IMG/VR virus record: IMGVR_UViG_3300033075_000428
Location: 96,001 to 160,000 of that record
Direction: 5' to 3' (one strand)
DNA length: 64,000 bases
DNA from: a virus
Taxonomy: Duplodnaviria > Caudoviricetes
The notes under the pieces were generated by a model. That model was not told where the DNA came from, did not search any database, and worked only from the letters and a program-made list of their open reading frames with translations. The stretch's first letter is position 1. Every line of letters begins with the position of its first letter. A program made the position numbers and the translations under genes. Below are positions 6,348 through 62,928 of this stretch, piece after piece.

Positions 6348-6765
6348 TGGACGTGGGGGGAGTCGAACCCCCGTCCGAACATCGGTCTATCTCATGGAAT
6401 TACAATCATCGGTCTCAGTTAGTAAGTACTATCATCATTACGTCGAGACCTTCATGATGACGCCCGTCAGTTTGATCATGTCCTACACACGAGCAGTACG
6501 GATTCAACTCCTGTGTAGTAAGTTCATAATGGAGCCTTGACTCCTGCGACACGATGTTCAACTACCTATGAACTAATGCTGACATCGTGGTATCAAACAG
6601 CCTGAGCGTATTGATACTGGGGAACATTAGCCTCTGGGTAGAGGTTAATGACCTTAGCTTGCTTGTTGCCAGTTATGGCTTGTCCAGTTGTATTTACATG
6701 CTCCACCAGACTAGCATGGATTGCCACTTCGACTTCTCTTTGCCCGTCGAAACCTTTACACGCCC
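6348..6765 (-). ncRNA. ssrA: tmRNA; tag ORF 6670..6593 encodes (A)GNKQAKVINLYPEANVPQYQYAQAV*
   Basis: 5' GGGCGTGTAAAGGTTTCGACGGG; 3' GACGGGGGTTCGACTCCCCCCACGTCCA; acceptor stem with G3-U70 Ala determinant; ATAACT resume signal. Confidence 0.93.
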
Positions 6766-40745: not shown

Positions 40746-43700
40746 TTAGACTCTCTCTTTTAGGTTCAACTTAAATTCAATTTTGTCGCCAGCGTTAATG
40801 AACTGGTTCACATTGTCTACTGATTCTTCGGAAGTCGATATTTCGGTGACTTCAACATCATAGGCCATTGCAAGCCTCTTGACGATGTCTTGTAAGTCCT
40901 GTTCGAATCCTGAACCTTCCATGTGGTAAGAACCATCATCATGCTTCTCAATCTCAAGCTCACAAGCTCCACCCCAAGAAGAACCAATTTCAACGTCACA
41001 CCGTAGGGGCATTCCGTTAAGCCATTGGTAACGCTCTTGTGGAATGGTCTCCATATGGAGTTTGAAGACGTCATAAATCTGAATCAATTCCGATGGGAAT
41101 ACATCAACTTCAATTGAGTCATGAACTGTGCCTATCATCTTAGAACGTAAACCAGTATTCCAGATATGCTCTTGAATACGGAGTGTCGCATCAAACGTCA
41201 AGTCGGAGTTATGCACGAAGACACCAGAAGCAAGAGCAAAGTTGTGGTACTCATCTACGCTGATATCGTAAACACTTATCTCTTCTTTTGAAGAAATCAA
41301 TGATACTGTATCAATCTTTACTGTTTGACTACTACCCAGTTCACAAACACCAGAAAGTTCATGCCCCCTAGTCAGATTTTGAGCTTCACAATAAGTCCCA
41401 TCTGTGAGAAGAAACAAATGATCAGGCGTGCAAGTCACAGTCTGACCACTGATGAGTGATACAGAGCATAGGATGGTAACAGACGTAGTTTTTCTTGCTG
41501 AATGACCCTTCCCAAAAACTATGTTTCCAGACTTATCAGAGGATAGTACACGGAAGTCTGTGACACCGACAAGGTCTTCTATTTTTACGAAACTATGTAG
41601 TCCACCCTCTGTGATAACTATTATCTCAGTGTCACCTGTGAAACAGGATGTCGACTGAATAGGAGAATTTTGAGCTTCTCGTTCACTCTTCAACACTTCA
41701 AACTTCTGTTTTGAATCAATGGAACGAAGCCATCTTCTTCTACCGAATGGTGTTGTCACATACTTATTCGCACGAAGAAACTTATGTTGTTCGTTGATCC
41801 AAGACTTCACATTTGGAAATCCCTTGAAGAAGTAGTCAATGTACGTCTGTGCTTCATCTATGGAGATTCCTAGTTCCTCAGAGAGTGACTTGGATTGCTT
41901 ACCGTAGAGAATGCCGAACACAACAGCCTTCGCACTCTTACGCTCTTTCTTCGAGACTTGCTCAACAGGCTTATTGAAGATTCGTCCAGCAGTTAGTGCG
42001 TGAACGTCTAGTCCCTCTTTGTATGCAGAGATGAATCCATCGTCATTTGCTAGAGCACCGATGACACGTACTTCAAGCTGTGAATAGTCAGCCGCCATAA
42101 TCAGACCACCAGTTTCAGCGAACCGCGATGACACAAGACGCTTAACGTCAGTGTTCCCTGAAGGAAGTGTATGGAAGTAACTCGACAGTCTTCCTGTTGC
42201 AGTGCCGATGACGTTGTAGTCAGGTAGGTACATCCCAGTTTCAGGGTGTAGACTCTCAGGTTCTGACAACGGCTCAAGATATGTTGACAGAATCTTGACG
42301 AGGCCACGTAAGCTAGATATGATTTGAGCTATCTTCTTGGCTTCACGAGAGACTCGAATGTCATCAGTCTTGAGAATTATCTGGAGTGCTGACTCAGCCA
42401 CAGAAGGTTTGTTTCCTTCTGTCATCTCGACAACAGGACAGTGGAGATAATTTGGCGAGTAGAACAGTTCCTGAAGTTGTAACAAGCTATTTGGGTTGAA
42501 TTCAAACTTCTTCTTTTCAGCTGTCTTGTTTACAATGAAGGTTTCAACAGTCGGTAGTTTCTTTAGACCTTCACGGAAAAACTCAATGTTCTCTGTATAC
42601 TTCGTTATGAGAACATCTCGTTGAGCCCAATCAATCTGAATTCCTTCTGTTTCCAGTGCAATGAATACAGGGATGCTTCGTAGAAGGAACTGATAGCCAT
42701 CGGTCTTGTACTCCCTCATTCTCTTGTCAAGAGCCTCGAATAACAACAACGTTGCTATAGCATCCAATGCACCGTATGTTGAAATCGTTGTGTACTTAAC
42801 GTTGAAGAAGTGTCGGTCTTTTTTCAGTCGATGGCTGTTCAATTGCTCGTGTAAGTCTTTCTCCCATGTCATGTCGAATCCGAGCACCAGACGGGAAAGG
42901 TCTTTCAGGTTTAGGTCAATGCCACTGTCTCGACGAGCACCAAAGATATAGTAGCCCATGTAAAGTGTATCGGCATAAATCTTAAAGTCCTGAATTGGAA
43001 TGTTCAAGTGCTTATGACACCACTTCAAGTCGAAGATGATGTTGTGGCCAACAATAGGTATTGTCCTGAGTATCTTCCGTACACACTGGTTAACTAAATC
43101 TGTATGCTCTACCGTGATTAGAAGTTCAGGATGTTCAACGCCAACGAAGAAACCTTCTCGTGTCTCAGGGTCGGAGAAGCAATAGCCAATAATCTTGCTG
43201 TCAGGAAGGTTCCATTCCAGATTCTTAGTCTCGATGTCGAAGACAACGTATGGGAAGTTTCCATTCTTGTATCTCGTAATTAAGTCTGTTGTGTATTCCA
43301 AAAACTCCCAAGGCTCCAGCACACGAGACTTAATCTGCGACGAGACGTCAGAAACTCCAGAGACTTTGTTGCTTATGTTCTGAAGTATCTGAATGAACTT
43401 CTCATGATAAGAGAAGTTCATCATCACGTACGTTGGAGATGGTATCGGGATAATTGGAAGTGCTAACTGTGTGCCATCTGGGAGACCAAATGACACTGGG
43501 TACTCATTGCCTGCAATTGACAAGATTCCTGACTCATTACTGGGCAGGAATAGCTTTGTGGCGGTTGAACCACAGGTAATAACATAGCGCAACGAGTTCT
43601 TAAACCGTTGAAACTCATACTGCAGGTGGGTGGAGGCACACAGTTGAACTGATTGCTCTGGTGGTGCGGCAAGCTTGCCTGAGAATACGTTCTGTCCTTC

Positions 43701-43973
43701 GTATGAGATGCACTTCGTCAGAGAAGTGAAGTATATGTCTTCTGGTTTGAATCCAACTTTAGTCAGTGAAGTGATGAGCAAATCAGCACTATCGCCAACC
43801 ATGAGTTCACCACGCTCGTCTTCTGTTCGATTTGGGGATTCTACAATCACCATTACCTTTGGTGAGAGTTGTCCTTTACCTGAAATAGCGATAGTCTTAG
43901 CGCAATTCGACAGTGCGCACCATTTTGAGGAGGAACACCGTGAAGATTCTTTCCCGACGATTGGTAAGTCCAT
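40746..43973 (-). CDS. polA: family A DNA polymerase with N-terminal UDG-like domain, 3'-5' exonuclease and mini-intein
   Basis: FDIET, GHNIIFD, TGRLSS, DYSQLE, RKSAKAVVFGILYG, VHDS. Confidence 0.93.
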   Translation of the reverse strand: MDLPIVGKESSRCSSSKWCALSNCAKTIAISGKGQLSPKVMVIVESPNRTEDERGELMVGDSADLLITSLTKVGFKPEDIYFTSLTKCISYEGQNVFSGKLAAPPEQSVQLCASTHLQYEFQRFKNSLRYVITCGSTATKLFLPSNESGILSIAGNEYPVSFGLPDGTQLALPIIPIPSPTYVMMNFSYHEKFIQILQNISNKVSGVSDVSSQIKSRVLEPWEFLEYTTDLITRYKNGNFPYVVFDIETKNLEWNLPDSKIIGYCFSDPETREGFFVGVEHPELLITVEHTDLVNQCVRKILRTIPIVGHNIIFDLKWCHKHLNIPIQDFKIYADTLYMGYYIFGARRDSGIDLNLKDLSRLVLGFDMTWEKDLHEQLNSHRLKKDRHFFNVKYTTISTYGALDAIATLLLFEALDKRMREYKTDGYQFLLRSIPVFIALETEGIQIDWAQRDVLITKYTENIEFFREGLKKLPTVETFIVNKTAEKKKFEFNPNSLLQLQELFYSPNYLHCPVVEMTEGNKPSVAESALQIILKTDDIRVSREAKKIAQIISSLRGLVKILSTYLEPLSEPESLHPETGMYLPDYNVIGTATGRLSSYFHTLPSGNTDVKRLVSSRFAETGGLIMAADYSQLEVRVIGALANDDGFISAYKEGLDVHALTAGRIFNKPVEQVSKKERKSAKAVVFGILYGKQSKSLSEELGISIDEAQTYIDYFFKGFPNVKSWINEQHKFLRANKYVTTPFGRRRWLRSIDSKQKFEVLKSEREAQNSPIQSTSCFTGDTEIIVITEGGLHSFVKIEDLVGVTDFRVLSSDKSGNIVFGKGHSARKTTSVTILCSVSLISGQTVTCTPDHLFLLTDGTYCEAQNLTRGHELSGVCELGSSQTVKIDTVSLISSKEEISVYDISVDEYHNFALASGVFVHNSDLTFDATLRIQEHIWNTGLRSKMIGTVHDSIEVDVFPSELIQIYDVFKLHMETIPQERYQWLNGMPLRCDVEIGSSWGGACELEIEKHDDGSYHMEGSGFEQDLQDIVKRLAMAYDVEVTEISTSEESVDNVNQFINAGDKIEFKLNLKERV
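41208..41645 (-). mobile_element. 146-aa mini-intein in DNA polymerase
   Basis: CFTGDTE...CTPDH...VYDISV..YHNFAL..GVFVHN/S. Confidence 0.9.
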
Positions 43974-51136: not shown

Positions 51137-52291
51137 TTAGATGATTGGTTGGTTGTTAAGTTCTGTGTGTTCTTTGATGTTCTTCAAGAAACGGGCATCA
51201 ACAGCTTGCTGGAGATATGAGTTGGACACTGCGCTAGAACAATAGGTATTGAACTGGGAGTACAATGAGTTCTTTGTGTTGAGGTCAAAGGTCTTGTCCT
51301 TGAATATCAGTTCAAGGAATGGAATCGAGAAGTAGATTGCAATCGGGCAATTTGAACGAGTCTTCAACAGCGAAAGGAATTCTCCAGCCGCTATAGCAAG
51401 AGTGTCATGTGCTTCACGAACGGACTTCGCATTGAAGTATGTATCAAGACGATGCTTGTACTGTGTGAACAGTTGGTCATATTCACCCAACGTACAGCCA
51501 GAAAATGGCATGTGGTTCTTTGGGTTGAACTTACTGTTCTCAGTAACTTGTTCTTCTTTCACTGCGTAAATCTTGTCAAGCACATTGTAGTACTTGTCAT
51601 ACACATGCAGGGACTGGGTGTGATGAGTATAGGTACCGACTTCTAAGTTGACACAGCCAGCAACGAACTCTTGAATTGCGGAAAACTCAAAGAAATTGAT
51701 ACCACTGAATCCCCAGATGAGGTCATTGCTTCGATTGAAGACACTCATATTGAGCTTATTGTCTCGAACAAGGAACGACATAAACACATTGCAAGCTACA
51801 TCTATCCCAGGTTGATGGTCGATTGGTGGGTAAGAGATAGTGATGAATGCGCGACGTGTTGTCTTGTCATTGCGAAGAAGCTCGATACAGTGTTGCAACT
51901 GGTCAAATGTACCTGTGATTGGGCTTGGGAAAGCTCGTAGACGCACACCATAAGCAGAACGCCAAGTGTTGCCGTGGTCGTCTGAAAACTGTGGTGCTCG
52001 CTTCAAGAACGGAGTGAGATACTTTAGTTCATTGGAACCACCAAGAACCCAAAGGGTCTCAGCAATCTGGGCGATGACATTGGCACCACGCTCAGGGCAA
52101 CGGATGATTCTATCTCTGGGGTCACTCGCCATGAGTGTTACAGACAACAATTCCTTTGTCTCACCAGCACGACTAGGAACAGTCTGTCCATAGTTCGTCA
52201 TGGTGTTAGTCACTTGGTGAAGAAGGTCAGTCAGTCCGACACCCTCAAATGTACCACCAATGAAATTGTCTTCTGCGGGTTCTTGTGTCAT
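51137..52291 (-). CDS. thymidylate synthase homolog, probable dUMP hydroxymethylase (start uncertain, 52291 or 52351)
   Basis: ETLW, YG.RLR, DQ, TRRA, catalytic C, RSNDLIWG...N (Asn = dUMP specificity), SLHVY; context of 5hmdU-modifying enzymes. Confidence 0.82.
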   Translation of the reverse strand: MTQEPAEDNFIGGTFEGVGLTDLLHQVTNTMTNYGQTVPSRAGETKELLSVTLMASDPRDRIIRCPERGANVIAQIAETLWVLGGSNELKYLTPFLKRAPQFSDDHGNTWRSAYGVRLRAFPSPITGTFDQLQHCIELLRNDKTTRRAFITISYPPIDHQPGIDVACNVFMSFLVRDNKLNMSVFNRSNDLIWGFSGINFFEFSAIQEFVAGCVNLEVGTYTHHTQSLHVYDKYYNVLDKIYAVKEEQVTENSKFNPKNHMPFSGCTLGEYDQLFTQYKHRLDTYFNAKSVREAHDTLAIAAGEFLSLLKTRSNCPIAIYFSIPFLELIFKDKTFDLNTKNSLYSQFNTYCSSAVSNSYLQQAVDARFLKNIKEHTELNNQPII

Positions 52292-52433
52292 GTTATCAAT
52301 CTTGGGTTGGGATATTGGGAAAGGTTTGGAATTCTGAAATATCTCCCTCATATCAGAAATCAATATTTCAAGAGGATTGTCACTTGTATCATTATCAAAT
52401 TCAACAACATACTTACGAGACACAAGTGGCGCA

Positions 52434-52895
52434 TCAAGATTCTTCGGGAAATGCGTCTTGGTTGAGGAACTCTGCGTCGTCGTATTGGTTTTCAGAGATT
52501 CCACGAAGGGAAACGATTTCTTCAATCTTATCTTTGGTAATAGGCTCATAGTCTTTCCGTGAATAAACAACGCCTTCGGGGGAAATGTAGTAGTACGTAG
52601 TAACGATATATCCCTTGCAAACTGCATCGTCAATGATTCGTAACTCCTTACTCTTGATTCTTGAGTTACCGATTATCATCGTTGGTGTAAGATGCTTTAG
52701 CAGGAAAAGTGATTTGCCCTTCGTGGCATCGTATTTAGCATTGCCGTCAATTTCAACCACAGCACAACGGAACTTTGGCACAATTACAAAATGCTCTGCT
52801 GGGATGACTTCTCCGTTACGATAAGTCTCTGAGCCATTGGATAATCTTGCGATTAGATGACTCATCTTGCTGTAGAGTTTTCCTTCGTGAATCAC
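52434..52895 (-). CDS. hypothetical protein
   Basis: 153-aa ORF with acidic tail. Confidence 0.55.
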   Translation of the reverse strand: MIHEGKLYSKMSHLIARLSNGSETYRNGEVIPAEHFVIVPKFRCAVVEIDGNAKYDATKGKSLFLLKHLTPTMIIGNSRIKSKELRIIDDAVCKGYIVTTYYYISPEGVVYSRKDYEPITKDKIEEIVSLRGISENQYDDAEFLNQDAFPEES

Positions 52896-52996
52896 AGGGA
52901 ACCTATTTGGTTGGTGAGGACAGTCTCACTTTGCATTCGCCTAGGGAGAGAACGTGCGAAATTCTCTTAAGAACTTAGCTATTTGCAATCACGAGA

Positions 52997-53443
52997 TTAG
53001 GTAGAGTGGTGTTCGAGTAGTTCCAATTGAACAAACTGCTCGAAATATTGCATTGCTGCAAGGGTCGCGGGAGAACTGGGCACGTAGCTATTGGCGTAGA
53101 CCACTCGGGTAATTCCAACTTGAATGATAGCCTTGATACAACCTTCGCATGGTTGATGGGTAACATAGATAGTGCATCCGTCAAGACAAATTCTGGACGC
53201 AACGAGTAGAGCGTTGAGTTCTGCGTGAACGCATCTAACACATCGCTGTTGGTCGTTGAGTAAGCATCCGACATCCAAGCAATGTGGAGTGTTTTTTGGC
53301 GAGCCATTGTACCCTGTTGAGATGATTCTGTTGTTAGTATCGACTAAAACTGCACCAACTTTCAGTCTCTGACACGTTGACCGTGTTGAAACTTGGTGAG
53401 CTATGCCCATGAACATCTCATCGAACGAAGGTCTTGCCGACAT
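52997..53443 (-). CDS. dCMP deaminase
   Basis: RSTC.R..VGA, GYNG, HAELNA, PCEGC. Confidence 0.93.
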   Translation of the reverse strand: MSARPSFDEMFMGIAHQVSTRSTCQRLKVGAVLVDTNNRIISTGYNGSPKNTPHCLDVGCLLNDQQRCVRCVHAELNALLVASRICLDGCTIYVTHQPCEGCIKAIIQVGITRVVYANSYVPSSPATLAAMQYFEQFVQLELLEHHST

Positions 53444-53478
53444 AATCTTATGAAACTCAAAATTTTAGCGGTATCACA

Positions 53479-54420
53479 CTAGTAATTTCTGCGTCTACCC
53501 GTCCCACGGGCGATGTTGAAGTACTTTCTCGCTTCACAGAAAACGCTCTCAACGTTGTTCATCGACAGATATGGTTGATTGCTATATGCAGCACGATAGT
53601 AGATTTCCATCCAGTCCTTTCCTGTTCGGTCACGAAGCTTATTGAACATCTCTTCTTGACGCATCCATGTTCTCTTGATGTACTCGGCAAGCACTTTTCT
53701 ATTTGGTGTCGGGTCATTGTACATCTCTTGGAGTGACTGTATTGTCCCTGGGCCGACAGTTGCTAGGTCATGGTTGTCATCAAGCTTGTAAACAAAGTAA
53801 TGCGGTCTACAGTAAGTTAGGTCTTGAACAATCTCAGAAGCTAAGAACTCACCAATCAACCGAACCTTTGAAAGTGTCTTCACAGCTTCCTGCAAAGAAC
53901 TAGCCATTCGTAGCTCATTGTGAATGTCATCGATGTTCTTTGATACGAAGTCAAACATCAAGAGGAACTGAGCATGTTTGTCCTTACGGTATTCAGGGTC
54001 GAATTTCATCTGAGTGACGGTGTAAGCTGGGTTCCACAGCTTAACACCTTTCGCCATCTTTGAGTCCAGTACACGCTCGTAGAACTTCCAATCAAAGGTT
54101 CTTGGCTCAAGCACAGGGAACAGAATATCAAACGTGTTGTGGAGATTAAAGACACGTCCGATGATTAGGTTGAAGAGCTTTTCCTCTGGAGGTATTGTTT
54201 CCTTTGAACAGATGCGCTCAATGAGGTGGATACTTGTTTTGTCTAGTTCACGATACACGTTGGTGAACTTATACGCCTGAAGCAATGGATTCGTTGTCCA
54301 TGGCTTCGGCATCCCAAGCACAAAGCGGTTATGCCATACAAGTTGTCTGTCGTAAACGAATTCAAAGAGGTCATCCAATGTTGGCATGAACTCTTCAGGA
54401 AGCATTGCGTTGAGTGCCAT
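53479..54420 (-). CDS. 5-hmdU DNA kinase helical domain (aGPT-Pplase1 family)
   Basis: DRQ.VW..R...KPWT.NPLL..YKFTNVYRELD, R.FN, GPG, E..FCE..KY. Confidence 0.85.
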   Translation of the reverse strand: MALNAMLPEEFMPTLDDLFEFVYDRQLVWHNRFVLGMPKPWTTNPLLQAYKFTNVYRELDKTSIHLIERICSKETIPPEEKLFNLIIGRVFNLHNTFDILFPVLEPRTFDWKFYERVLDSKMAKGVKLWNPAYTVTQMKFDPEYRKDKHAQFLLMFDFVSKNIDDIHNELRMASSLQEAVKTLSKVRLIGEFLASEIVQDLTYCRPHYFVYKLDDNHDLATVGPGTIQSLQEMYNDPTPNRKVLAEYIKRTWMRQEEMFNKLRDRTGKDWMEIYYRAAYSNQPYLSMNNVESVFCEARKYFNIARGTGRRRNY

Positions 54421-54421
54421 G

Positions 54422-54853
54422 TTAGCTTGTGATATACTGTGGTGGTACGAATTCCCTTGGAAGAATGATGTTCTGTGGGATTGATTCGTAAATACTGAAG
54501 AAGACTTGTTGCATCTGCTCTATTGTAAATCCAGCAATTCCAGTTCCTATCTTCGTCATGAAGAACTTCATATTTGGATTAGTTCCAGCGATAATACAGA
54601 GCGTACTGACTTGATTCTCAATGTCTTTGAGCGTGATTCCAACAGTACCTGTTAGGTCAACTGTCATGATTGCGTAGCACTTTCCTTGGAATCCTATTGG
54701 GTTTCCTAACACTGCTCCAAAATGGTCAAGACACGTTCTAGCTAGTCCTGCTCCGTGTCTACCAGAGGTGTTGCTACCAAATACAATGTAAGTGCCCTGA
54801 CCGTGAATGTCTTCATGGTCTAAGAATTCAGGAGTGAAGACTGAGCGCATCAT
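54422..54853 (-). CDS. macro-like phage protein (FGSN..G.HGAG family)
   Basis: IVFGSNTSGRHGAGLA, G..YAI.T, F.MTKIGTGIAG, LPREF. Confidence 0.75.
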   Translation of the reverse strand: MMRSVFTPEFLDHEDIHGQGTYIVFGSNTSGRHGAGLARTCLDHFGAVLGNPIGFQGKCYAIMTVDLTGTVGITLKDIENQVSTLCIIAGTNPNMKFFMTKIGTGIAGFTIEQMQQVFFSIYESIPQNIILPREFVPPQYITS

Positions 54854-55428
54854 GTCCTTGCAGAGTGTCGCATGACAGAATCCATAATGGACTCAACAAT
54901 TCTAGCTGAGTCTGCTGGCGTATCATTCTTGACAAGGTTTGGAAAGTATGTGGACTCTTCAATGATGTTCTTATACTTTGTTTTCCTTCCCTTCAAGAAC
55001 TGCTCCTTCTGATTGATTCCTTTTTCTTTCCTCTGCTCACGACGTTGCGCTAGCACTTCGTCAGAACAGGTTAGAATGAACATCATAAGTGATGTGTTGG
55101 GGAGAGTGCGAAGATGATTGAAGAAGTTTTGTTGAAACAATCGGTCTCCCTCAAAGAGAACCACAATCTTCTGCTGTGGTGGAAGAGTAGATAGATGCGT
55201 TGCGAACTTGCGTCCATCTCTAAGAGCTATCATGGACAAGCGGTCTGTCCCAAGGAAAGCATTATCCACATTGTAGATGCCAAGTACAAATATCCCACCT
55301 TGATGCTTTGTGCCGCGAATTAAGTCGAACTGAAAGTCAGTTCCCTCACCCAACTGTGGAAGTATCTGTTGCATGATGTTAGTCTTGCCAGTACCAGGCT
55401 CACCACCGATTGCAATGTATGTAATCAT
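54850..55428 (-). CDS. P-loop nucleotide kinase associated with 5hmdU modification
   Basis: GGEPGTGKT, VLG.Y, F.GTDRLSM, FEGDRL. Confidence 0.8.
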   Translation of the reverse strand: MITYIAIGGEPGTGKTNIMQQILPQLGEGTDFQFDLIRGTKHQGGIFVLGIYNVDNAFLGTDRLSMIALRDGRKFATHLSTLPPQQKIVVLFEGDRLFQQNFFNHLRTLPNTSLMMFILTCSDEVLAQRREQRKEKGINQKEQFLKGRKTKYKNIIEESTYFPNLVKNDTPADSARIVESIMDSVMRHSART

Positions 55429-55730: not shown

Positions 55731-56597
55731 TTACTCGCTAAAGAACTCGCAGTAGAAACCAGAATTGCCGAATGATATCAGGCGCACATACTTTGCGGCG
55801 TTCACAGTTCGTACTTCTGTTGTATTGTTAGCAACAGAAAGTGTCTGGTCATACGCATATGTGTAACCATCTTGTGAGTCCGACAAGATGATTTGAATGG
55901 TGGAACCAGTGGTGTTCTGAATTGAAAGCTTATTGAACTGCTCAAAGCTTGTCTTAATCAGATGCTCATTGGGTGAGGTGTCCCGATGCTTGTATGAAGC
56001 TAGAATGTTCTGGGCAGGTGACGTGTCAGGGACAAAGTAGAACAGAAGCAAGAACGATCCGTCAGCATAATTGATTGTTCCAGCAATGAGGTTCTTACCT
56101 GTTAATCTGCCACGATAGTCATCAACATAGTTTTCAGTTACCCCATCGAACTTTACTTTGAACGTCACGGAACCAGGAGTAATATTCGTCTCTGGCAGTT
56201 GACCGCGATACTTAGTGATGCTAGTAGCAACTGCTACCGAGGTATCATAGTTTGTTACTTGGTAAGGACCAACGGGAGCGTAACTGTAATTACCAGTAAT
56301 AGTAGAAGCATTGTCTGGTGCTGTGCCTGTAAATGTCAACGTCCAAGCACCAGTATAGTAGTTAATGGTTCCTGTTACAGCAGTCCCAGACAGTACACCC
56401 AAACCATCGTCTGTAATTGCTACTGGTGTAGTGGAAACTGTTGCTGTAAAAGCGCACGTTGTTGGTTTAACAACCTTTTGTGCAAGTGTACCAGAGAATA
56501 CTAGGATAACACCATCTGGACTTGAAGAAAGTGTCTCACTGGTTACGTTGGTAACTGCAGCAAACGAGGGAGTTTTTACTATCTTGATATCAGACAT
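55731..56597 (-). CDS. Gly/Thr-rich beta protein, probable virion structural protein (paralog of next)
   Basis: two internal repeats D(D/N)G.G.L.G...GTINY..G. Confidence 0.7.
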   Translation of the reverse strand: MSDIKIVKTPSFAAVTNVTSETLSSSPDGVILVFSGTLAQKVVKPTTCAFTATVSTTPVAITDDGLGVLSGTAVTGTINYYTGAWTLTFTGTAPDNASTITGNYSYAPVGPYQVTNYDTSVAVATSITKYRGQLPETNITPGSVTFKVKFDGVTENYVDDYRGRLTGKNLIAGTINYADGSFLLLFYFVPDTSPAQNILASYKHRDTSPNEHLIKTSFEQFNKLSIQNTTGSTIQIILSDSQDGYTYAYDQTLSVANNTTEVRTVNAAKYVRLISFGNSGFYCEFFSE

Positions 56598-56622
56598 TGG
56601 TGTTCCTATGAGTATTGTTCTT

Positions 56623-56662
56623 AAAACAGAATAGCACCGCCATTTACATGACAGTGCTATTC
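56623..56662 (-). terminator. probable terminator
   Basis: GAATAGCAC/GTGCTATTC stem plus TGTTTT. Confidence 0.55.
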
Positions 56663-56697
56663 CGCTTCAGGGTATTCCATTCTCTCTAGGAGTGGAA

Positions 56698-57543
56698 TTA
56701 AACCATCGTTGCTACCACTTCAAGTGAATCGCCAGTGGAAACTACACGATATGCCTTGTTGGTTTCAACAGCAAAGACCTTTGCAGTTGCTCCAGCAGGA
56801 ATATTGAAGTAGTCAACTGCTGTGTAGGTCACTTCGTCTGGCGACGAGTAGAGGAAACCTTTGACAGCGCCATCTTGGCGAGACTGGATAGAAATCGTAT
56901 TGATGTCGTCAGCCAACTTTGCAACTACTTCTTCGTGAGTTTCCGTATCACGATGCTTGTAGGTGCAAGTCATTGCTGCAACGTCAGGCGGTGTCGAGAA
57001 GTAGAACTTGAAGTATCCATCAAAGTAATTGATGAATCCAGACGACAAGTTACTTCCTGTCAACTTACCTAACTTGTCCTCTGTGAAGGTCACAGGAGAC
57101 GAAGAGAAGTTGATTGAAAACGTGACGGAACCTGGAACGATATGCTTCTTTGGCAAGAAACCTTCGTACACAGTCACGCCAGCGGCACCTGTTACACCAG
57201 TGGAACCAGCAGTAACTTGGAATGGACCGACAAGTGCATATGAATACGAGCAAGTAATTGCAGTCGCATTGTCAGGAGCACCACCAGTGAAGTCTAGCAC
57301 CAGAGCACCAGTAAGGTAGTTAATCGTGCCAGAAACAAGTCCAGCGCCAGTTAACACACCCTTACCATTGTCAGTTGCTGTCTTCGCGGTACCGTCTGTC
57401 CACTTCACAAGCACAGAGCCAGGAACTACTGGCTTGTTCGCGAGTGTCACAGAGAAGTTCACAAGCGTGTTGTCACCAGTGCCGACAGATTCATTCACAG
57501 CATTGGATGCAGCAGCAAACTTCTTGGTTTGAATACGAGACAT
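56698..57543 (-). CDS. Gly/Thr-rich beta protein, probable virion structural protein
   Basis: colinear paralog of 55731..56597 (APDNA..IT..YSYA.VGP.QVT; YKHRDT); AAAGGA RBS. Confidence 0.72.
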   Translation of the reverse strand: MSRIQTKKFAAASNAVNESVGTGDNTLVNFSVTLANKPVVPGSVLVKWTDGTAKTATDNGKGVLTGAGLVSGTINYLTGALVLDFTGGAPDNATAITCSYSYALVGPFQVTAGSTGVTGAAGVTVYEGFLPKKHIVPGSVTFSINFSSSPVTFTEDKLGKLTGSNLSSGFINYFDGYFKFYFSTPPDVAAMTCTYKHRDTETHEEVVAKLADDINTISIQSRQDGAVKGFLYSSPDEVTYTAVDYFNIPAGATAKVFAVETNKAYRVVSTGDSLEVVATMV

Positions 57544-58181: not shown

Positions 58182-59147
58182 CTATAGCTCCCAGTATTTG
58201 GAGTACTTGTTCAACTTTTTGTCTGTGTAGTTTTCTGACAACAGACTGGCGTCGAATGTCTCTCGACGAAAGTCCCAGAGAACAGACCAATCGACACCTG
58301 ATTTTACTCTAGATTGAAGTTCACGTATCTCTTTGGCTTGACGCTCAAGATAATACCCAATCCAACGCTTCTTGATTTTGTATTTCTTGTAAGCACAGAG
58401 TGTGGTTTCGATGCTCCAGATGTTGTCGTTTGGGCGATACTTCTCAATCAAGGTCTTCAACTTCCCAAACTCAGCGTTCAGAAACTGAAGTGACTCCTTA
58501 TCAATCTTCTTTTTGTCAAAGTGATTCATCAAGTCATCTTGCCCAAGAGCGAAGCACAGTCCATTTCTAGAACTCTCCGCATTAGCTAGGTCAAGCTCAG
58601 TTGGAATGAGTGGAATGCCTGTTGTGACATTCACCGCTTCCAAGTATACGAACATTCTGAACCTTCCGAACCACTTGACCTTCGAAAAATGCTTGAATGC
58701 GTTATTGTATGTTTCCATACTGTTCGCACCAGTCAACTCTCGATACTTCATGAGTTGTGTACCTTGCCCAACCAACTCAGAATAGCTCTTCACTACATCA
58801 ACGAATTGGTTTCTGGAACGTATCCAAAGGCAGTCAGACTGGAAAATAGTCTTGTCCTTATTGGCGTACCACCAACGTTCAAGACGATTGAAGTCAATGT
58901 TCTCAAAATCTGGGAACTCGTTGTACATGTAGAAAACAGTAGGAGCGCAATAACATGTAGCTGTTAAGAATGCTATCCATAACCGTTGTTCGATGTTCAA
59001 CTCATAACGGTCACAGATGTAGTCAAGAAGTGGATTCTGGGGGTCAACGTCCTTGAACTTCATTGACTCATCATGGTACTTGAAGAACTCCAAGACTCTG
59101 TTCTCATACGGGAACAACGCTTGCACGTCAGATTGTAGTTCTGTCAT
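58182..59147 (-). CDS. amino acid:DNA transferase (aGPT-Pplase2/AADT family)
   Basis: DVDP, EQRLW.AFL, FGRF..F.YLE, S.RNGL, ETTLCAYKK, GYY. Confidence 0.85.
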   Translation of the reverse strand: MTELQSDVQALFPYENRVLEFFKYHDESMKFKDVDPQNPLLDYICDRYELNIEQRLWIAFLTATCYCAPTVFYMYNEFPDFENIDFNRLERWWYANKDKTIFQSDCLWIRSRNQFVDVVKSYSELVGQGTQLMKYRELTGANSMETYNNAFKHFSKVKWFGRFRMFVYLEAVNVTTGIPLIPTELDLANAESSRNGLCFALGQDDLMNHFDKKKIDKESLQFLNAEFGKLKTLIEKYRPNDNIWSIETTLCAYKKYKIKKRWIGYYLERQAKEIRELQSRVKSGVDWSVLWDFRRETFDASLLSENYTDKKLNKYSKYWEL

Positions 59148-59800
59148 TCAGCACCACGGATTAAACTCTGTGCAATTATTGGCTCTAGTATAGGAAGTGA
59201 TGTGCAATCAACTCCTAATGCTCGCTTAAAGATGTCTTTTGTTGATGCCCAATACACAGTCTGCTGGTCTTCAGTAACGTGATAGTACAATGGACGAAAT
59301 TTGTTTCTTAGTAGTACAATCGTACCATTGCTAGTGTAAGCACCAGCGAATGAACAATTCTCACGTATGACGTTTTCAGGGTGTTGAGGGTCGATCTTGA
59401 CCCGAACAAGGAACATCTCTCCGTCATTGTCTGTCTGCATTGGCTGTTGTAGTTGAATCTCCATTTCCTCTTTCGTGGCCATGGAGATAACACCATTGAA
59501 CGTCAATGCCTCACCACTGACAACCAATGGTTGATTGTTCTCAATCTGGTGGTAGTCACCGCTTGTTGAATACCTTGTGTGCCCAAGAATAGCTCGTGGG
59601 ACAATAGGCAACTGCTTCAGGGAGATGAGTGCGTCGGTCAACTCCAAGAATCGCTCTACATGAATAACAGCGTTGTTATCATAGTATGCGTATCCAAAAG
59701 AGTGTAGGCCACGTATCTTAGCTTCATTGAAAAGCTTCTGCATATTGTGAATATGCGTCTTGCTTGGTGCATTCGTGACGTAGCCAATTACTCCACACAT
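59144..59800 (-). CDS. stand-alone class II (Ntn) glutamine amidotransferase
   Basis: MCGVIG, RGLHSFG, GHTRYSTSG, NNQPL, FNGVI, TDNDGE, RPL. Confidence 0.88.
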   Translation of the reverse strand: MCGVIGYVTNAPSKTHIHNMQKLFNEAKIRGLHSFGYAYYDNNAVIHVERFLELTDALISLKQLPIVPRAILGHTRYSTSGDYHQIENNQPLVVSGEALTFNGVISMATKEEMEIQLQQPMQTDNDGEMFLVRVKIDPQHPENVIRENCSFAGAYTSNGTIVLLRNKFRPLYYHVTEDQQTVYWASTKDIFKRALGVDCTSLPILEPIIAQSLIRGAE

Positions 59801-59803
59801 TGG

Positions 59804-60415
59804 TTAAACTCCTGTCTCGAGAAACGAGTCAACAGGAATGGGCTTGAACTTGTTTGAAATTGAGTCGAACTCAGTTCTACACTTTCCAAGATACTGGTTT
59901 CTTCTGCGAGTTGAGATTGGATTCTCATCTGTATCATACACAGAAGAGCTCAGTGCCTCTGATTTCAAAGTGTCCATATCAACATATGGAGCTACCTTGA
60001 TATCATATACAAGCTCATCATTCGTTGTTGCAATTGGCAAGAATCCAAGCTTGGCATAGAATGCGATAGCTCCTGGATTCTCCTTCAATACTTTCCATGT
60101 TAGACGTGTTAGTCCTTTAGCAACTGCTTCTTGTATGCCACGATTCATGAGCTCACGAGCAATGCCACGCCCTTGTGATTCAGGAGCTACATACACATAG
60201 TACATGTTAGCATAAGTTGACTTCAAGTGCATTGCAGCGTAGAAGCCAACAATCTTTCCGTCTTCAATTGCGATTAGTGGCGGAGTATTCTTCCAACCTT
60301 CATAGCGTACCCACACAAACGGGAACTCCTTGAGGAACTTCCAAGAGCTTTTCTTAACAAGCTGTGCAAGTTCAGCCTCATGTGTGTCTTTGTCAGCTGT
60401 TACATACTCAATCAT
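59804..60415 (-). CDS. GNAT-family acetyltransferase
   Basis: VAPESQGRGIARELM (motif A), N..AIAFYAKLGF. Confidence 0.9.
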   Translation of the reverse strand: MIEYVTADKDTHEAELAQLVKKSSWKFLKEFPFVWVRYEGWKNTPPLIAIEDGKIVGFYAAMHLKSTYANMYYVYVAPESQGRGIARELMNRGIQEAVAKGLTRLTWKVLKENPGAIAFYAKLGFLPIATTNDELVYDIKVAPYVDMDTLKSEALSSSVYDTDENPISTRRRNQYLGKCRTEFDSISNKFKPIPVDSFLETGV

Positions 60416-61080
60416 AATGACCTCAAATTATTAAGCAGTTCTGTCACTTTGACGATAGCTTGTTTTCTTCCGTCTTCAAATATCGAACGTTCCTGTATCT
60501 TAGGAACTGTATATTCACCAATCACAAGGAAACTCTCTTGGTCACAAACGTGGGGTACTGAGCAGAGATTAATATAGTGCTGTGTGGCTAACAGAGTTAT
60601 CTCTACCAATACAGTGCACAATTCCTCAAGTGAGGGATGTATGAGAATCTTTGCTGTATCCTCATCTGAGTTCTTGTTTCTCAAAAGTCCAATCAACGAC
60701 TCAATCTGTTCCTCTGTAACACTGCTTGAACCTTCACGAAGGTTCTCAGACATCCACTCCAGAGTAACAGAAACAAGGCATTCAGACAAGTGGTGCCGTA
60801 ATGAACGAATCTCTGCGGGGTGGTCTTCAACGTCATTCGGGGCTACACACCATTCAAGTATCGAACCACGTCTGAAACACTTGACATATGAACCCATCTC
60901 ATATGGCTTCACTGCGTTGTTCTGCATGAAGTCAAACAGCTGGTGTTGGTAGTCCGCTCGTAAGATAGGCTGTGGTTCCAACGGGTCTTTCGACCTCATG
61001 TCACCAAGTGAAAGTAGCCAGAATGACTCGATGTCTTCGATGTTGTCAAAGATGTATTGAAGTTTCTCAACTGAGGTCAT
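60412..61080 (-). CDS. hypothetical protein
   Basis: 222-aa ORF, ATGA overlaps on both sides. Confidence 0.6.
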   Translation of the reverse strand: MTSVEKLQYIFDNIEDIESFWLLSLGDMRSKDPLEPQPILRADYQHQLFDFMQNNAVKPYEMGSYVKCFRRGSILEWCVAPNDVEDHPAEIRSLRHHLSECLVSVTLEWMSENLREGSSSVTEEQIESLIGLLRNKNSDEDTAKILIHPSLEELCTVLVEITLLATQHYINLCSVPHVCDQESFLVIGEYTVPKIQERSIFEDGRKQAIVKVTELLNNLRSL

Positions 61081-61376
61081 GAATGAACTTTCATATAGAC
61101 ATCTACCAAACTCTTGACTCGCTGTATTGAAATGAATGCAGGAAGACTTAGGTGAGGGACGCTACAGTCATCCTGTTTGCGGCTACCAAAGTTTCTCGCT
61201 GTACGATGTCTACTGAATCGTAGCTTTACAATCGTCTCATTTTGTTCTTTTGTCTTGATTTCTACGTACAAAGAACCTGTCTCCAACAGCTTCGTTGAAA
61301 TCAGGAACCCACGTGAACGAACGTATGTCATTAACTCAATGAGATGCTTTTCTGCAAAATCGTTGATTGGTTTCAT
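61077..61376 (-). CDS. hypothetical protein
   Basis: TGSLY....LRFSRH small phage domain. Confidence 0.6.
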   Translation of the reverse strand: MKPINDFAEKHLIELMTYVRSRGFLISTKLLETGSLYVEIKTKEQNETIVKLRFSRHRTARNFGSRKQDDCSVPHLSLPAFISIQRVKSLVDVYMKVHS

Positions 61377-61381
61377 GACAT

Positions 61382-62194
61382 TTATGATTGTCCATGTAGG
61401 CTGTATCCAGTGTCAAGAAAGAACCTGCTAATCATCTTCGTGTCTTGTGACATTGACGTTGCGATATAGCTCTTCAGGTATGAGATTGCCAATGGATTAA
61501 ATACTGACATCCCATTCAATAAACCTTCGGTAAAGACGAAGTCACCTTCGGGTGTTCGCTTGAACTTCTTCCCAGCGTCACAATACTGATTGTACGAGCA
61601 CTTGGCAATTAACTCAGGCAAGGTAATTTGCTGTCCGTCGTTGAACATTAACCCGTGCTGAGTTAACTGCTTATTGAATACTTTAGCAGTTGCAACAGTG
61701 TCATGCCAAGAGTCATGTGCACCAGTGTGTTCCTCACCAAGATAATCCTTGACAGCAGACGTCAGATTCCTCGGGTTGAACTTCTTGTACACGGTACAAG
61801 CGTCCAGTGAACCAATGTACCGTGGGAAGTATTCATTACACCGAGCAAACTCTTCACGAAGCATTGGTATGTCAAACTCGTCAGAGTTAAATCCTACAAT
61901 GACACTGTCCTCAAGGACACTGACCAGAGTTGGTATCAAATCACGGAACTTTGGTTTCCCAAAAACTGTCTCAACAGTTATGTTGTGAATTGGGTTCGGC
62001 ATGAACGGTACACCTGGGTCTACCAGAGTGTCAAACGAGTATGACCCATTCTCAAATCCAGCACCCACACCAATGAGTGAAATCTGAAGAATGCTATCTT
62101 CAGGGATGCTCAGTCCAGTTGTCTCAACGTCTAGTGTCACTAGCTTTGAGATGTTGAACCTAAGACATAGTTCCTTCATTGATTCAATGTTCAT
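61382..62194 (-). CDS. DEDDh 3'-5' exonuclease (Pol III epsilon-like)
   Basis: LDVETTG, GFNSDEFD, AHDSWHD. Confidence 0.9.
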   Translation of the reverse strand: MNIESMKELCLRFNISKLVTLDVETTGLSIPEDSILQISLIGVGAGFENGSYSFDTLVDPGVPFMPNPIHNITVETVFGKPKFRDLIPTLVSVLEDSVIVGFNSDEFDIPMLREEFARCNEYFPRYIGSLDACTVYKKFNPRNLTSAVKDYLGEEHTGAHDSWHDTVATAKVFNKQLTQHGLMFNDGQQITLPELIAKCSYNQYCDAGKKFKRTPEGDFVFTEGLLNGMSVFNPLAISYLKSYIATSMSQDTKMISRFFLDTGYSLHGQS

Positions 62195-62732
62195 CTTCGC
62201 CTTCTTGGGTTGATAGCACGTCTTTCACTGGTAGAGCAGGAACGACGGTTTCGCCATTGAAGAACTGGTCAAGCCCAACAGACTTGAAATCGTCTTCTGT
62301 CCACTCAACATGCTGTCCAGGGAGTTCCACTCCAGTCACCAGACTTCTACGCTTCAGCTGGTCGATACTGAAACAGGTCTTGCCGTTGTCTTTCGAGAAC
62401 ACTGATGGATTCCGCTTGTTCTGCCAACAGTGATTCCCACCCATATAGTCACTGATGTCAAGCCATTCGTCAGGGTGGTTGGTCAGTGGAGTAATATTCT
62501 TGAACGTAGCTAACGCTACTACAACTTCAAGTACCTCGAACAACGACACACCATCAATTGCGGCTCCATGAATCTTCGTCACAATGTCAAGAACGTTAAC
62601 CGCAAATGATGCTGTAACTTCAAACTCTGGATTGTCAGAATCATAGAATCCAGCGAGTTTGAGTTCATTCTTAGCGTGTTGACGAATCTTGTCAAATGGG
62701 ATAGAGTCACTGTAGTTTAGTGGTTCAGGCAT
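62184..62732 (-). CDS. hypothetical phage protein
   Basis: HA..EL, TPLT..PDEW, WQNKR...VF; start taken at MPEPL. Confidence 0.65.
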   Translation of the reverse strand: MPEPLNYSDSIPFDKIRQHAKNELKLAGFYDSDNPEFEVTASFAVNVLDIVTKIHGAAIDGVSLFEVLEVVVALATFKNITPLTNHPDEWLDISDYMGGNHCWQNKRNPSVFSKDNGKTCFSIDQLKRRSLVTGVELPGQHVEWTEDDFKSVGLDQFFNGETVVPALPVKDVLSTQEGEDEH

Positions 62733-62928
62733 TGAGCACGTCCAGTATATCTGATTTTGTAAACAGAACATCCTCGTGTGGACTCGTACCATCGTTAAAA
62801 TGATAGTTGTCCTGAGGGAAGTCCACCCAAATCCAATCGTCCCCTTGGAATACTCTCTGTTGTAGCTCACCAGACGTGGGGTGTTTCCTGAACAGGAACT
62901 TCACGATGTTTCTTACAACAGTGTCCAT
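62725..62928 (-). CDS. hypothetical protein
   Basis: 67-aa ORF bridging neighbours with short overlaps. Confidence 0.5.
   Translation of the reverse strand: MDTVVRNIVKFLFRKHPTSGELQQRVFQGDDWIWVDFPQDNYHFNDGTSPHEDVLFTKSDILDVLNA

Follow-up and report, generated by a model that had tools for sequence, protein, structure and literature searches.

A glutamine amidotransferase domain paired with an amino acid:DNA transferase in a 190-kb virus genome: a candidate two-subunit enzyme for amination of 5-hydroxymethyl-deoxyuridine in DNA

In the 64,000-nucleotide stretch of viral DNA analysed here (the window; bases 96001-160000 of IMG/VR record IMGVR_UViG_3300033075_000428), three adjacent genes encode a GNAT acetyltransferase, a stand-alone class-II glutamine amidotransferase (GATase) and an amino acid:DNA transferase (AADT). 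The record is a complete virus genome of 190,353 bp with direct terminal repeats. We consider it rather likely that the GATase and the AADT make up a two-subunit amidotransferase that depends on glutamine and has a base in DNA as its acceptor, with ammonia as the nucleophile that yields 5-aminomethyl-deoxyuridine (5-aminomethyl-dU), which the GNAT would then acylate. An initial annotation, made from the letters of the window alone, had proposed that the GATase is the glutaminase subunit of the AADT in exactly this way, and the proposal now has support in silico: the GATase and AADT genes are adjacent in 41/41 loci, two natural fusions join the proteins, a complex is predicted with an ipSAE of 0.85 (best control 0.00), the PurF-type active site of the GATase is intact, the associated GNATs resemble gp48 of phage PaMx11, and the genome gave no match to the flavin adenine dinucleotide (FAD), pyridoxal phosphate (PLP) and radical S-adenosylmethionine (radical-SAM) enzyme families that were tested.

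The three genes follow one another in the same orientation on the minus strand, as both the open reading frame (ORF) listing and the sequence itself indicate:

59804-60415, minus strand: GNAT, 203 aa (PF00583, 1.9e-20)
59144-59800, minus strand: bare class-II, N-terminal nucleophile (Ntn) GATase, 218 aa, N-terminus MCGVIGY (PF13522 GATase_6, 3.4e-10)
58182-59147, minus strand: AADT of aGPT-Pplase clade 2, 321 aa (PF18724 ADDT, 3.7e-17)

Each Pfam match lies over its curated cut-off (for the AADT, 63.3 bits with a gathering cut-off of 26.2), which bears out the three family assignments of the initial annotation. The TAA stop of the GNAT gene is followed by 'cca' and then by the ATG of the GATase gene, leaving a 3-nt gap, and the TGA of the GATase gene overlaps the ATG of the AADT gene as ATGA, an arrangement that agrees with the initial annotation. 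The GNAT start in turn overlaps the end of an ORF lying upstream (60412-61080), again as ATGA, so the coupled run exceeds three genes. Pfam detects GATase_6 alone in the GATase and no second (synthase) domain in cis, in keeping with the earlier description of a bare Ntn domain of about 218 aa with an intact Cys2. The GATase is the sole GATase_6 match genome-wide and the AADT is single-copy in the whole genome. A scan for promoters and terminators around the operon stayed at background level, and the C termini of the window's enzymes have no tail in common.

The pairing of the two genes is strictly conserved among the relatives that we could retrieve. With the AADT as query we obtained 43 IMG/VR loci (38-52% identity), and in all 37 of those that retain upstream sequence the gene immediately preceding the AADT encodes a GATase homologue (33-44% identity); the remaining six are cut at the contig edge. 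The same pair occurs in four further contigs of another collection, giving 41/41 loci in all. The initial annotation had suggested a survey of AADT neighbourhoods for both the GATase and the GNAT. The GATase recurs without exception; a GNAT lies inside the cassette in only 24/41 loci, at three different positions. We conclude that the cassette has a core of GATase, AADT and kinase, to which the GNAT is added optionally as a cap. Two contigs, L051 and L052, whose AADTs are 75% and 72% identical to that of the window, repeat its gene order exactly (ORF, GNAT, GATase, AADT and three further ORFs). The majority of the other loci belong to small contigs of P22-like podoviruses, which carry genes for a ParB-like protein, Tet_JBP, GATase, a small GNAT, AADT, a P-loop kinase and terminase, Tet_JBP and ParB both being present in most related loci; a second layout places the kinase ahead of the GATase and has no GNAT. 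The pair is thus found across very different backbones, from P22-like podovirus contigs through 60-kb contigs to the 190-kb genome.

The GATase family comprises at least 361 representatives at 50% identity (E <= 1e-30), the best 150 of which are 170-258 aa long, and the AADT clade comprises 682 homologues (E <= 1e-5). Of 50,697 cultured phage genomes, just 32 have homologues of the window GATase, and among the GATase-bearing cultured phages listed none belongs to the host groups that dominate the AADT matches. In the same 50,697 genomes no related phage carries the GATase-AADT pair, and megablast of the locus gave no match. A search for related loci with the GATase alone as query retrieved none; the AADT query succeeded. 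Several of the loci deserve separate mention. In the 62.7-kb contig L055 (8041-10990) the genes after the pair encode a 441-aa protein that contains a low-molecular-weight phosphatase domain, then a P-loop protein and a NAD-dependent epimerase; the pair itself sits among genes for gp32, RecA and a 5'-3' exonuclease, much as in the window. For the GATase of L056 (6357-6986) the called start at 6408 looks wrong; the tblastn alignment of the window GATase begins with its residue 1 at 6357, a position further upstream at which the gene overlaps the end of that for the GNAT. The two most divergent loci (L039:9088-10704 and L042:9665-10924) have an AADT with a C-terminal extension followed by a radical-SAM enzyme, which suggests, from the sequences, that some phages tailor the amine further.

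Among longer relatives of the GATase we found two natural fusion proteins, P0121 and P0122 (642 and 671 aa), each a single ORF on its own contig with GATase_6 at the N terminus and ADDT at the C terminus. Both begin with MCGI, both retain the RYSTSG, NNQP, NG and ND motifs of the GATase and the E..C motif of the AADT, and both keep versions of three motifs of the AADT clade, DRYELNxEQR, NEFPD and GVDWSVLWDFR. An N-terminal GATase domain followed by a C-terminal acceptor domain is the usual layout of class-II amidotransferases.

We also modelled the GATase-AADT complex, as the initial annotation had recommended. Three runs gave ipSAE values of 0.85, 0.89 and 0.85, the best of three controls scoring 0.00; at least 95% of contacts are common to the runs, and each partner has a pLDDT of at least 90. 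The mark is attained by 58 of 80 solved complexes and by 2 of 110 mismatched pairs, a calibration that is rough since custom family alignments were used. Recall of a known structure is unlikely, because a sequence search of solved structures found no AADT complex among them. On the AADT, the modelled contacts fall at residues 47-53, 76-85 and 283-289, within the motifs DRYELNxEQR, NEFPD and GVDWSVLWDFR; these motifs are invariant in the clade and absent from the AADTs of M6, PaMx11 and ViI-like phages, which have no GATase. On the GATase, the contacts include residues 1, 28-33, 77 and 79, beside the active site. The model supports, as a prediction, binding of the GATase to the AADT. These data also bear on the simplest alternative, namely that the genes are neighbours with no shared function, the GATase being an auxiliary metabolic gene comparable to the bare GlmS-like GATases that PaP3-type Pseudomonas phages carry, and the GNAT being unrelated. 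Bare GATase genes do exist in phages that have no AADT, and GNATs are common in phages, but chance proximity sits badly with adjacency in 41/41 loci across diverse backbones, two fusions, translational coupling and a model score of 0.85 versus 0.00. We regard it as very improbable and, by the conservation and fusion data, close to refuted.

Turning to the AADT itself, the reference is the 5-acetylaminomethyl-dU pathway of PaMx11, which comprises gp46 (the AADT, or PUGT), gp47 (an FAD-dependent N-alpha-GlyT oxidase), gp48 (an acetyltransferase), gp49 (5-HMUDK), gp50 and gp51 (a dUMP hydroxymethylase) (PMC8989533, PMC11472151) and in which glycine is added and then cleaved by an FAD-dependent lyase in a two-step route (PMC8989533). 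Residues E247, T248 and C251 of the window AADT align with the catalytic E243, T244 and C247 of gp46 and with their equivalents in M6 gp51 (ETxLC), and are invariant within the AADT clade. D35, K272, E273 and E276 align with the gp46 pocket residues D24, K261, D262 and E265, whereas W146 and K150, which hold glycine in gp46, are F163 and V167 in the window AADT (gp46 residues from the structural paper, PMC11472151). The AlphaFold2 model (pLDDT 91.6) has the all-helical gp46/PUGT fold, and Foldseek matches it only to PaMx11 gp46 crystal structures, the top three matches being 8z2n/8z2m (probability 1.0, TM 0.55-0.60). The AADT family profile had no match among PDB sequences, and gp46 was recovered by the fold search alone. 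The mechanism of AADTs through an exocyclic methylene is established for M6 gp51 and PaMx11 gp46 only (PMC8989533, PMC11472151). As the methylene intermediate of M6 gp51 takes outside nucleophiles (PMC8989533), ammonia is a chemically reasonable partner.

All catalytic and glutamine-binding residues of PurF and GlmS are retained in the GATase. Invariant in 19 homologues are C2, R30-G31, R76-Y77-x-T79-S80-G81-D82, N88-N89-Q90-P91, N102-G103 and N125-D126, and C2 is also present in both fusions. The best PDB profile match is PurF of Bacillus subtilis (1ao0, 5e-8); in the HMMER alignment C2, R30, R76, N102-G103 and D126 correspond to PurF Cys1, Arg26, Arg73, Asn101-Gly102 and Asp127. The conserved set is therefore the nucleophile, the Asn-Gly oxyanion hole and the Arg and Asp anchors of the alpha-carboxylate and alpha-amino groups of free glutamine. 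The AlphaFold2 model (pLDDT 94) has the four-layer Ntn fold, and its top Foldseek matches are the glutaminase domains of GlmS, GFAT and PurF (1xff, 1ao0 and 3ooj, E about 1e-10, TM about 0.75). In PurF, ammonia derived from glutamine displaces a phosphate-type leaving group. The window GATase shares with PurF and GlmS the N-terminal Cys nucleophile, the oxyanion hole, the glutamine anchors and the fold; unlike in those enzymes, the acceptor is a separate polypeptide of unrelated, all-helical fold that is proposed to act on a flipped-out DNA base, fused to the GATase in only the two relatives found.

The same active site raises the possibility of a covalent route, in which the AADT attaches glutamine or a gamma-glutamyl compound through its side-chain nitrogen and the Ntn domain hydrolyses the gamma-glutamyl amide to leave glutamate and 5-aminomethyl-dU, with no free ammonia. 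Stand-alone class-II proteins of the EgtC type are indeed trimming hydrolases with the same Cys, Arg, Asn-Gly and Asp set, EgtC is among the fold matches (at rank 38), and adjacency, fusion and a shared interface are equally compatible with such a scheme. EgtC, an ergothioneine Ntn amidohydrolase of about 230 aa, resembles the window GATase in being a stand-alone GATase-like protein; in contrast to EgtC, which removes a gamma-glutamyl group and works with no partner synthase, the GATase of the present loci is always paired with or fused to an AADT and stands closer to PurF and GlmS. The closest matches in both sequence and fold are the glutaminase domains of genuine amidotransferases (PurF, GlmS and GFAT), and the modelled active-site side of the GATase faces the AADT and is not open to DNA, which suits channelling better than a DNA-tethered adduct. 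From general chemistry, extended here to the present case, an amide nitrogen would moreover be a poor nucleophile for the methylene intermediate. We therefore hold the covalent route to be quite unlikely; a trimming Ntn hydrolase, which the initial annotation had offered as its alternative, fits less well than ammonia supply.

The substrate of the AADT appears to be provided by genes at lower coordinates on the same minus strand as the trio (51137-55428):

51137-52633, minus strand: thymidylate synthase (TS) homologue, 498 aa (PF00303, 7.5e-22, residues 180-357)
52997-53443, minus strand: dCMP deaminase, supplier of dUMP (PF00383, 1.9e-26)
53479-54420, minus strand: HMUDK_hel helical protein, 313 aa (PF18723, 2.8e-51)
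54850-55428, minus strand: P-loop protein, probable kinase, 192 aa (weak AAA_18 match only)

Among the characterised phages tested, the TS homologue is best matched by the TS homologues M6 gp58 and PaMx11 gp51 (E 1e-30), and is on sequence grounds a probable dUMP hydroxymethylase, that is, a pre-replicative source of 5-hydroxymethyl-dU (5-hmdU). Its N-terminal stretch of about 180 residues and its C-terminal stretch of about 140 residues have no family match. The HMUDK_hel protein is matched in tblastn by M6 gp55 and PaMx11 gp50; M6 gp55 is dispensable for glycinylation in vitro (PMC8989533). Between the HMUDK_hel and P-loop genes, an ORF of 143 aa (54422-54853, minus strand) matches the N-terminal domain of NCBIfam NF049995, 'A1S_2505 family phage non-structural protein' (8.4e-31); Pfam gave no match for it. 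The P-loop protein is probably the 5-hmdU DNA kinase that would make 5-phosphomethyl-dU: its homologues lie directly after the AADT in 23 related loci, and its family profile aligns with M6 gp54 (5-HMUDK) in hhalign (94.6%, E 6.5e-8). The genome has no match to PF18748 (HMUDK_HMUD1); PF18747 was not searched for.

The PLP, radical-SAM and FAD enzymes that act after the AADT in other phages could not be found. The initial annotation had seen no PLP, radical-SAM or flavin enzyme in the window, and for the families Radical_SAM, DAO (FAD; searched at E <= 0.1) and PALP (PLP) this absence extends to the complete genome, so that enzymes of these families encoded elsewhere in it do not account for the base. 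Both the M6 PLP enzyme gp52 and the protein adjoining the AADT in the ViI-like phage S118 belong to the PALP family. Likewise, tblastn with the tailoring enzymes of M6 and PaMx11 and the PALP-domain protein of S118 returned nothing in the genome, and the complete genome has no Tet_JBP (PF12851), ParB (PF02195) or Amidoligase_2 match.

The GNAT, by comparison, has a recognizable counterpart in PaMx11. In tblastn, gp48 matches the window GNAT (32% identity across 88 aa, genome-wide E 1e-7); in hhalign the window GNAT aligns with the small GNAT family of the related cassettes (90%, E 1.4e-6), and that family with gp48 (97.3%, E 1.8e-11). The window GNAT carries a QGRGIA acetyl-CoA motif, and orthologues occupy the same position in L051 and L052. 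PaMx11 gp48 acetylates 5-aminomethyl-dU and not N-alpha-glycinylthymidine (PMC8989533). The gene upstream of the GNAT is the following:

60412-61080, minus strand: ORF of 222 aa, its stop overlapping the GNAT start (ATGA)

Homologues of this ORF also lie upstream of the GNAT in L051 (58%) and L052 (41%). Its product had no match in Pfam, PHROG or NCBIfam, a protein atlas gave nothing usable, and it is a possible further member of the operon.

The specificity of gp48-type GNATs is relevant to another scheme, in which the AADT installs an amine or amino acid from the pool (glutamine or glutamate through the alpha-amine, serine or a polyamine), the GATase remodels it, for instance from glutaminyl to glutamyl, or serves a later step, and the GNAT caps the remaining amine. 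All characterised AADTs do take their nucleophile from free amino acids (glycine, serine) or diamines (putrescine, 1,3-diaminopropane), and alpha-glutamylthymidine occurs in Bacillus phage SP10. Yet gp48-type GNATs are inactive on the secondary amine of N-alpha-glycinylthymidine; the invariant Asp126, which in PurF and GlmS anchors the alpha-amino group, would lack a role on an N-alpha-linked residue; and amidation of a carboxylate needs an ATP-dependent synthetase, the genome having no amidoligase. Strict pairing with the AADT, up to fusion, would also be odd for a downstream tailoring enzyme, as other tailoring enzymes assort freely (PMC8989533). We judge this scheme unlikely.

All parts of the PaMx11 pathway have a counterpart, for the kinase a probable one, except the FAD lyase, in whose place stands a GATase predicted to bind the AADT; non-orthologous replacement is the simplest reading. 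In the amidotransferase pathway that we favour, the phage would replicate with 5-hmdU provided by the dCMP deaminase and the TS-like hydroxymethylase, and the P-loop kinase, perhaps with help from HMUDK_hel, would phosphorylate it to 5-phosphomethyl-dU. The AADT would then flip the base out, Cys251 would add to C6 and the phosphate would leave, generating the exocyclic methylene. The docked GATase would hydrolyse free glutamine at Cys2 and pass ammonia to the methylene, giving 5-aminomethyl-dU in one step, and the GNAT would acylate the new primary amine, most simply to 5-acetylaminomethyl-dU. In this scheme we infer the complex, the ammonia transfer and both products from genes, coupling, conservation, residues and fusions that are seen directly.

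Several points weigh against this pathway. The phage is uncultured and all support is in silico. The conserved residues of the GATase are common to trimming Ntn hydrolases such as EgtC, and F163 and V167 of the AADT exclude only a gp46-style binding of glycine, since the ViI-like serine enzyme lacks W146 and K150 too. The interface segments of the AADT flank, in sequence only, the helices that bear the gp46 pocket residues. The homology of the GNAT to gp48 is at the family level, and the window GNAT has about 70 extra C-terminal residues; the coupled gene at 60412-61080 could alter the end product. Finally, a radical-SAM enzyme accompanies the pair in divergent relatives, so that in some phages the route may continue beyond the amine.

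With respect to PaMx11, the window genome has in common a TS-like hydroxymethylase, a probable P-loop kinase (a remote homologue), a gp50-like HMUDK_hel protein, the same catalytic Glu, Thr and Cys and fold of the AADT, a gp48-like GNAT and, probably, an acylated 5-aminomethyl-dU as end product. In contrast to PaMx11, it contains no gp47-type FAD enzyme (no DAO match and no tblastn match to gp47) and instead ties a class-II GATase to the AADT; the proposed nitrogen source is the amide of glutamine and not glycine, which would save one step. The second comparison is with the ParB-dependent TET/JBP (5mYOX) cassettes of metaviromes (PMC13229309; PMC8989533), which have the same core of GATase, AADT and P-loop kinase. 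These cassettes hold most of the window-AADT homologues found (38-55% identity), and many carry a small gp48-like GNAT. Unlike the TET/JBP and ParB cassettes, in which 5-hydroxymethyl-U (5-hmU) is made after replication, the window genome has a probable dUMP hydroxymethylase and a dCMP deaminase and neither TET/JBP nor ParB; with such a supply every T is replaceable in principle.

The association of these genes has been noted before. Lee et al. 2021 described unknown 'amidoligase and glutaminotransferase' genes adjoining the kinase and the AADT (PMC8989533), and a 2026 T-dioxygenase paper and preprint reported ParB-dependent enzymes as 'consistently linked' with GATases, P-loop kinases and AADTs (PMC13229309). 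In both, the GATase is listed as 'hypermodification machinery' with no function assigned (PMC13229309, PMC8989533), and in the literature searched we found no paper that assigns it one. The 'candidate new route' of the initial annotation therefore needs qualification: the co-occurrence of GATase and AADT was already published (PMC8989533, PMC13229309), and it is the function of the GATase that had been left unassigned. What is new in the window is that the GATase-AADT module is combined with a 5-hmdU supply from a probable dUMP hydroxymethylase instead of TET/JBP and ParB; the large genome, the larger GNAT and the coupled ORF are particular to it.

Some further genes of the window lie around the modification operon. 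Just upstream, a 228-aa protein (62184-62870, minus strand) has a Tad3 (type I Thoeris inhibitor) domain (PF25185, 2.1e-21) and is a probable anti-defence protein. Downstream of the AADT, 55731-57543 (minus strand) encodes two paralogues of 288 and 281 aa, whose position is kept in L051 and L052; the 281-aa paralogue matches part of phrog_6128. A 1075-aa family-A DNA polymerase is encoded at 40746-43973 (minus strand), with the Maribacter phages Colly and Molly (33% identity) as nearest cultured relatives, followed by SPO1-like Bacillus phages; these relationships hint at a marine Bacteroidota host.

It is tempting to extend the proposal. The GATase-AADT pair may be the first glutamine amidotransferase with a base in polymeric DNA as acceptor, split or occasionally fused and tunnelling ammonia into a base-flipping transferase, with 5-hmdU supplied before replication and with the enlarged GNAT and the coupled proteins (60412-61376) leading to an undescribed acyl-aminomethyl base other than plain 5-acetylaminomethyl-dU; taken as a whole, we consider this extended version doubtful. 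As the window indicates, the module would operate with 5-hmU from either TET/JBP or a dUMP hydroxymethylase. Thymidine hypermodifications shield phage DNA from restriction and other nucleases, and each new enzymatic step is a tool for site-specific DNA chemistry. If the amidotransferase pathway is correct, a simple one-step enzymatic amination of 5-hmdU DNA, driven by glutamine and requiring two proteins, would become available, DNA would join the acceptors of the amidotransferase superfamily, and the occurrence of this gene pair in hundreds of marine and freshwater phage contigs would be explained.

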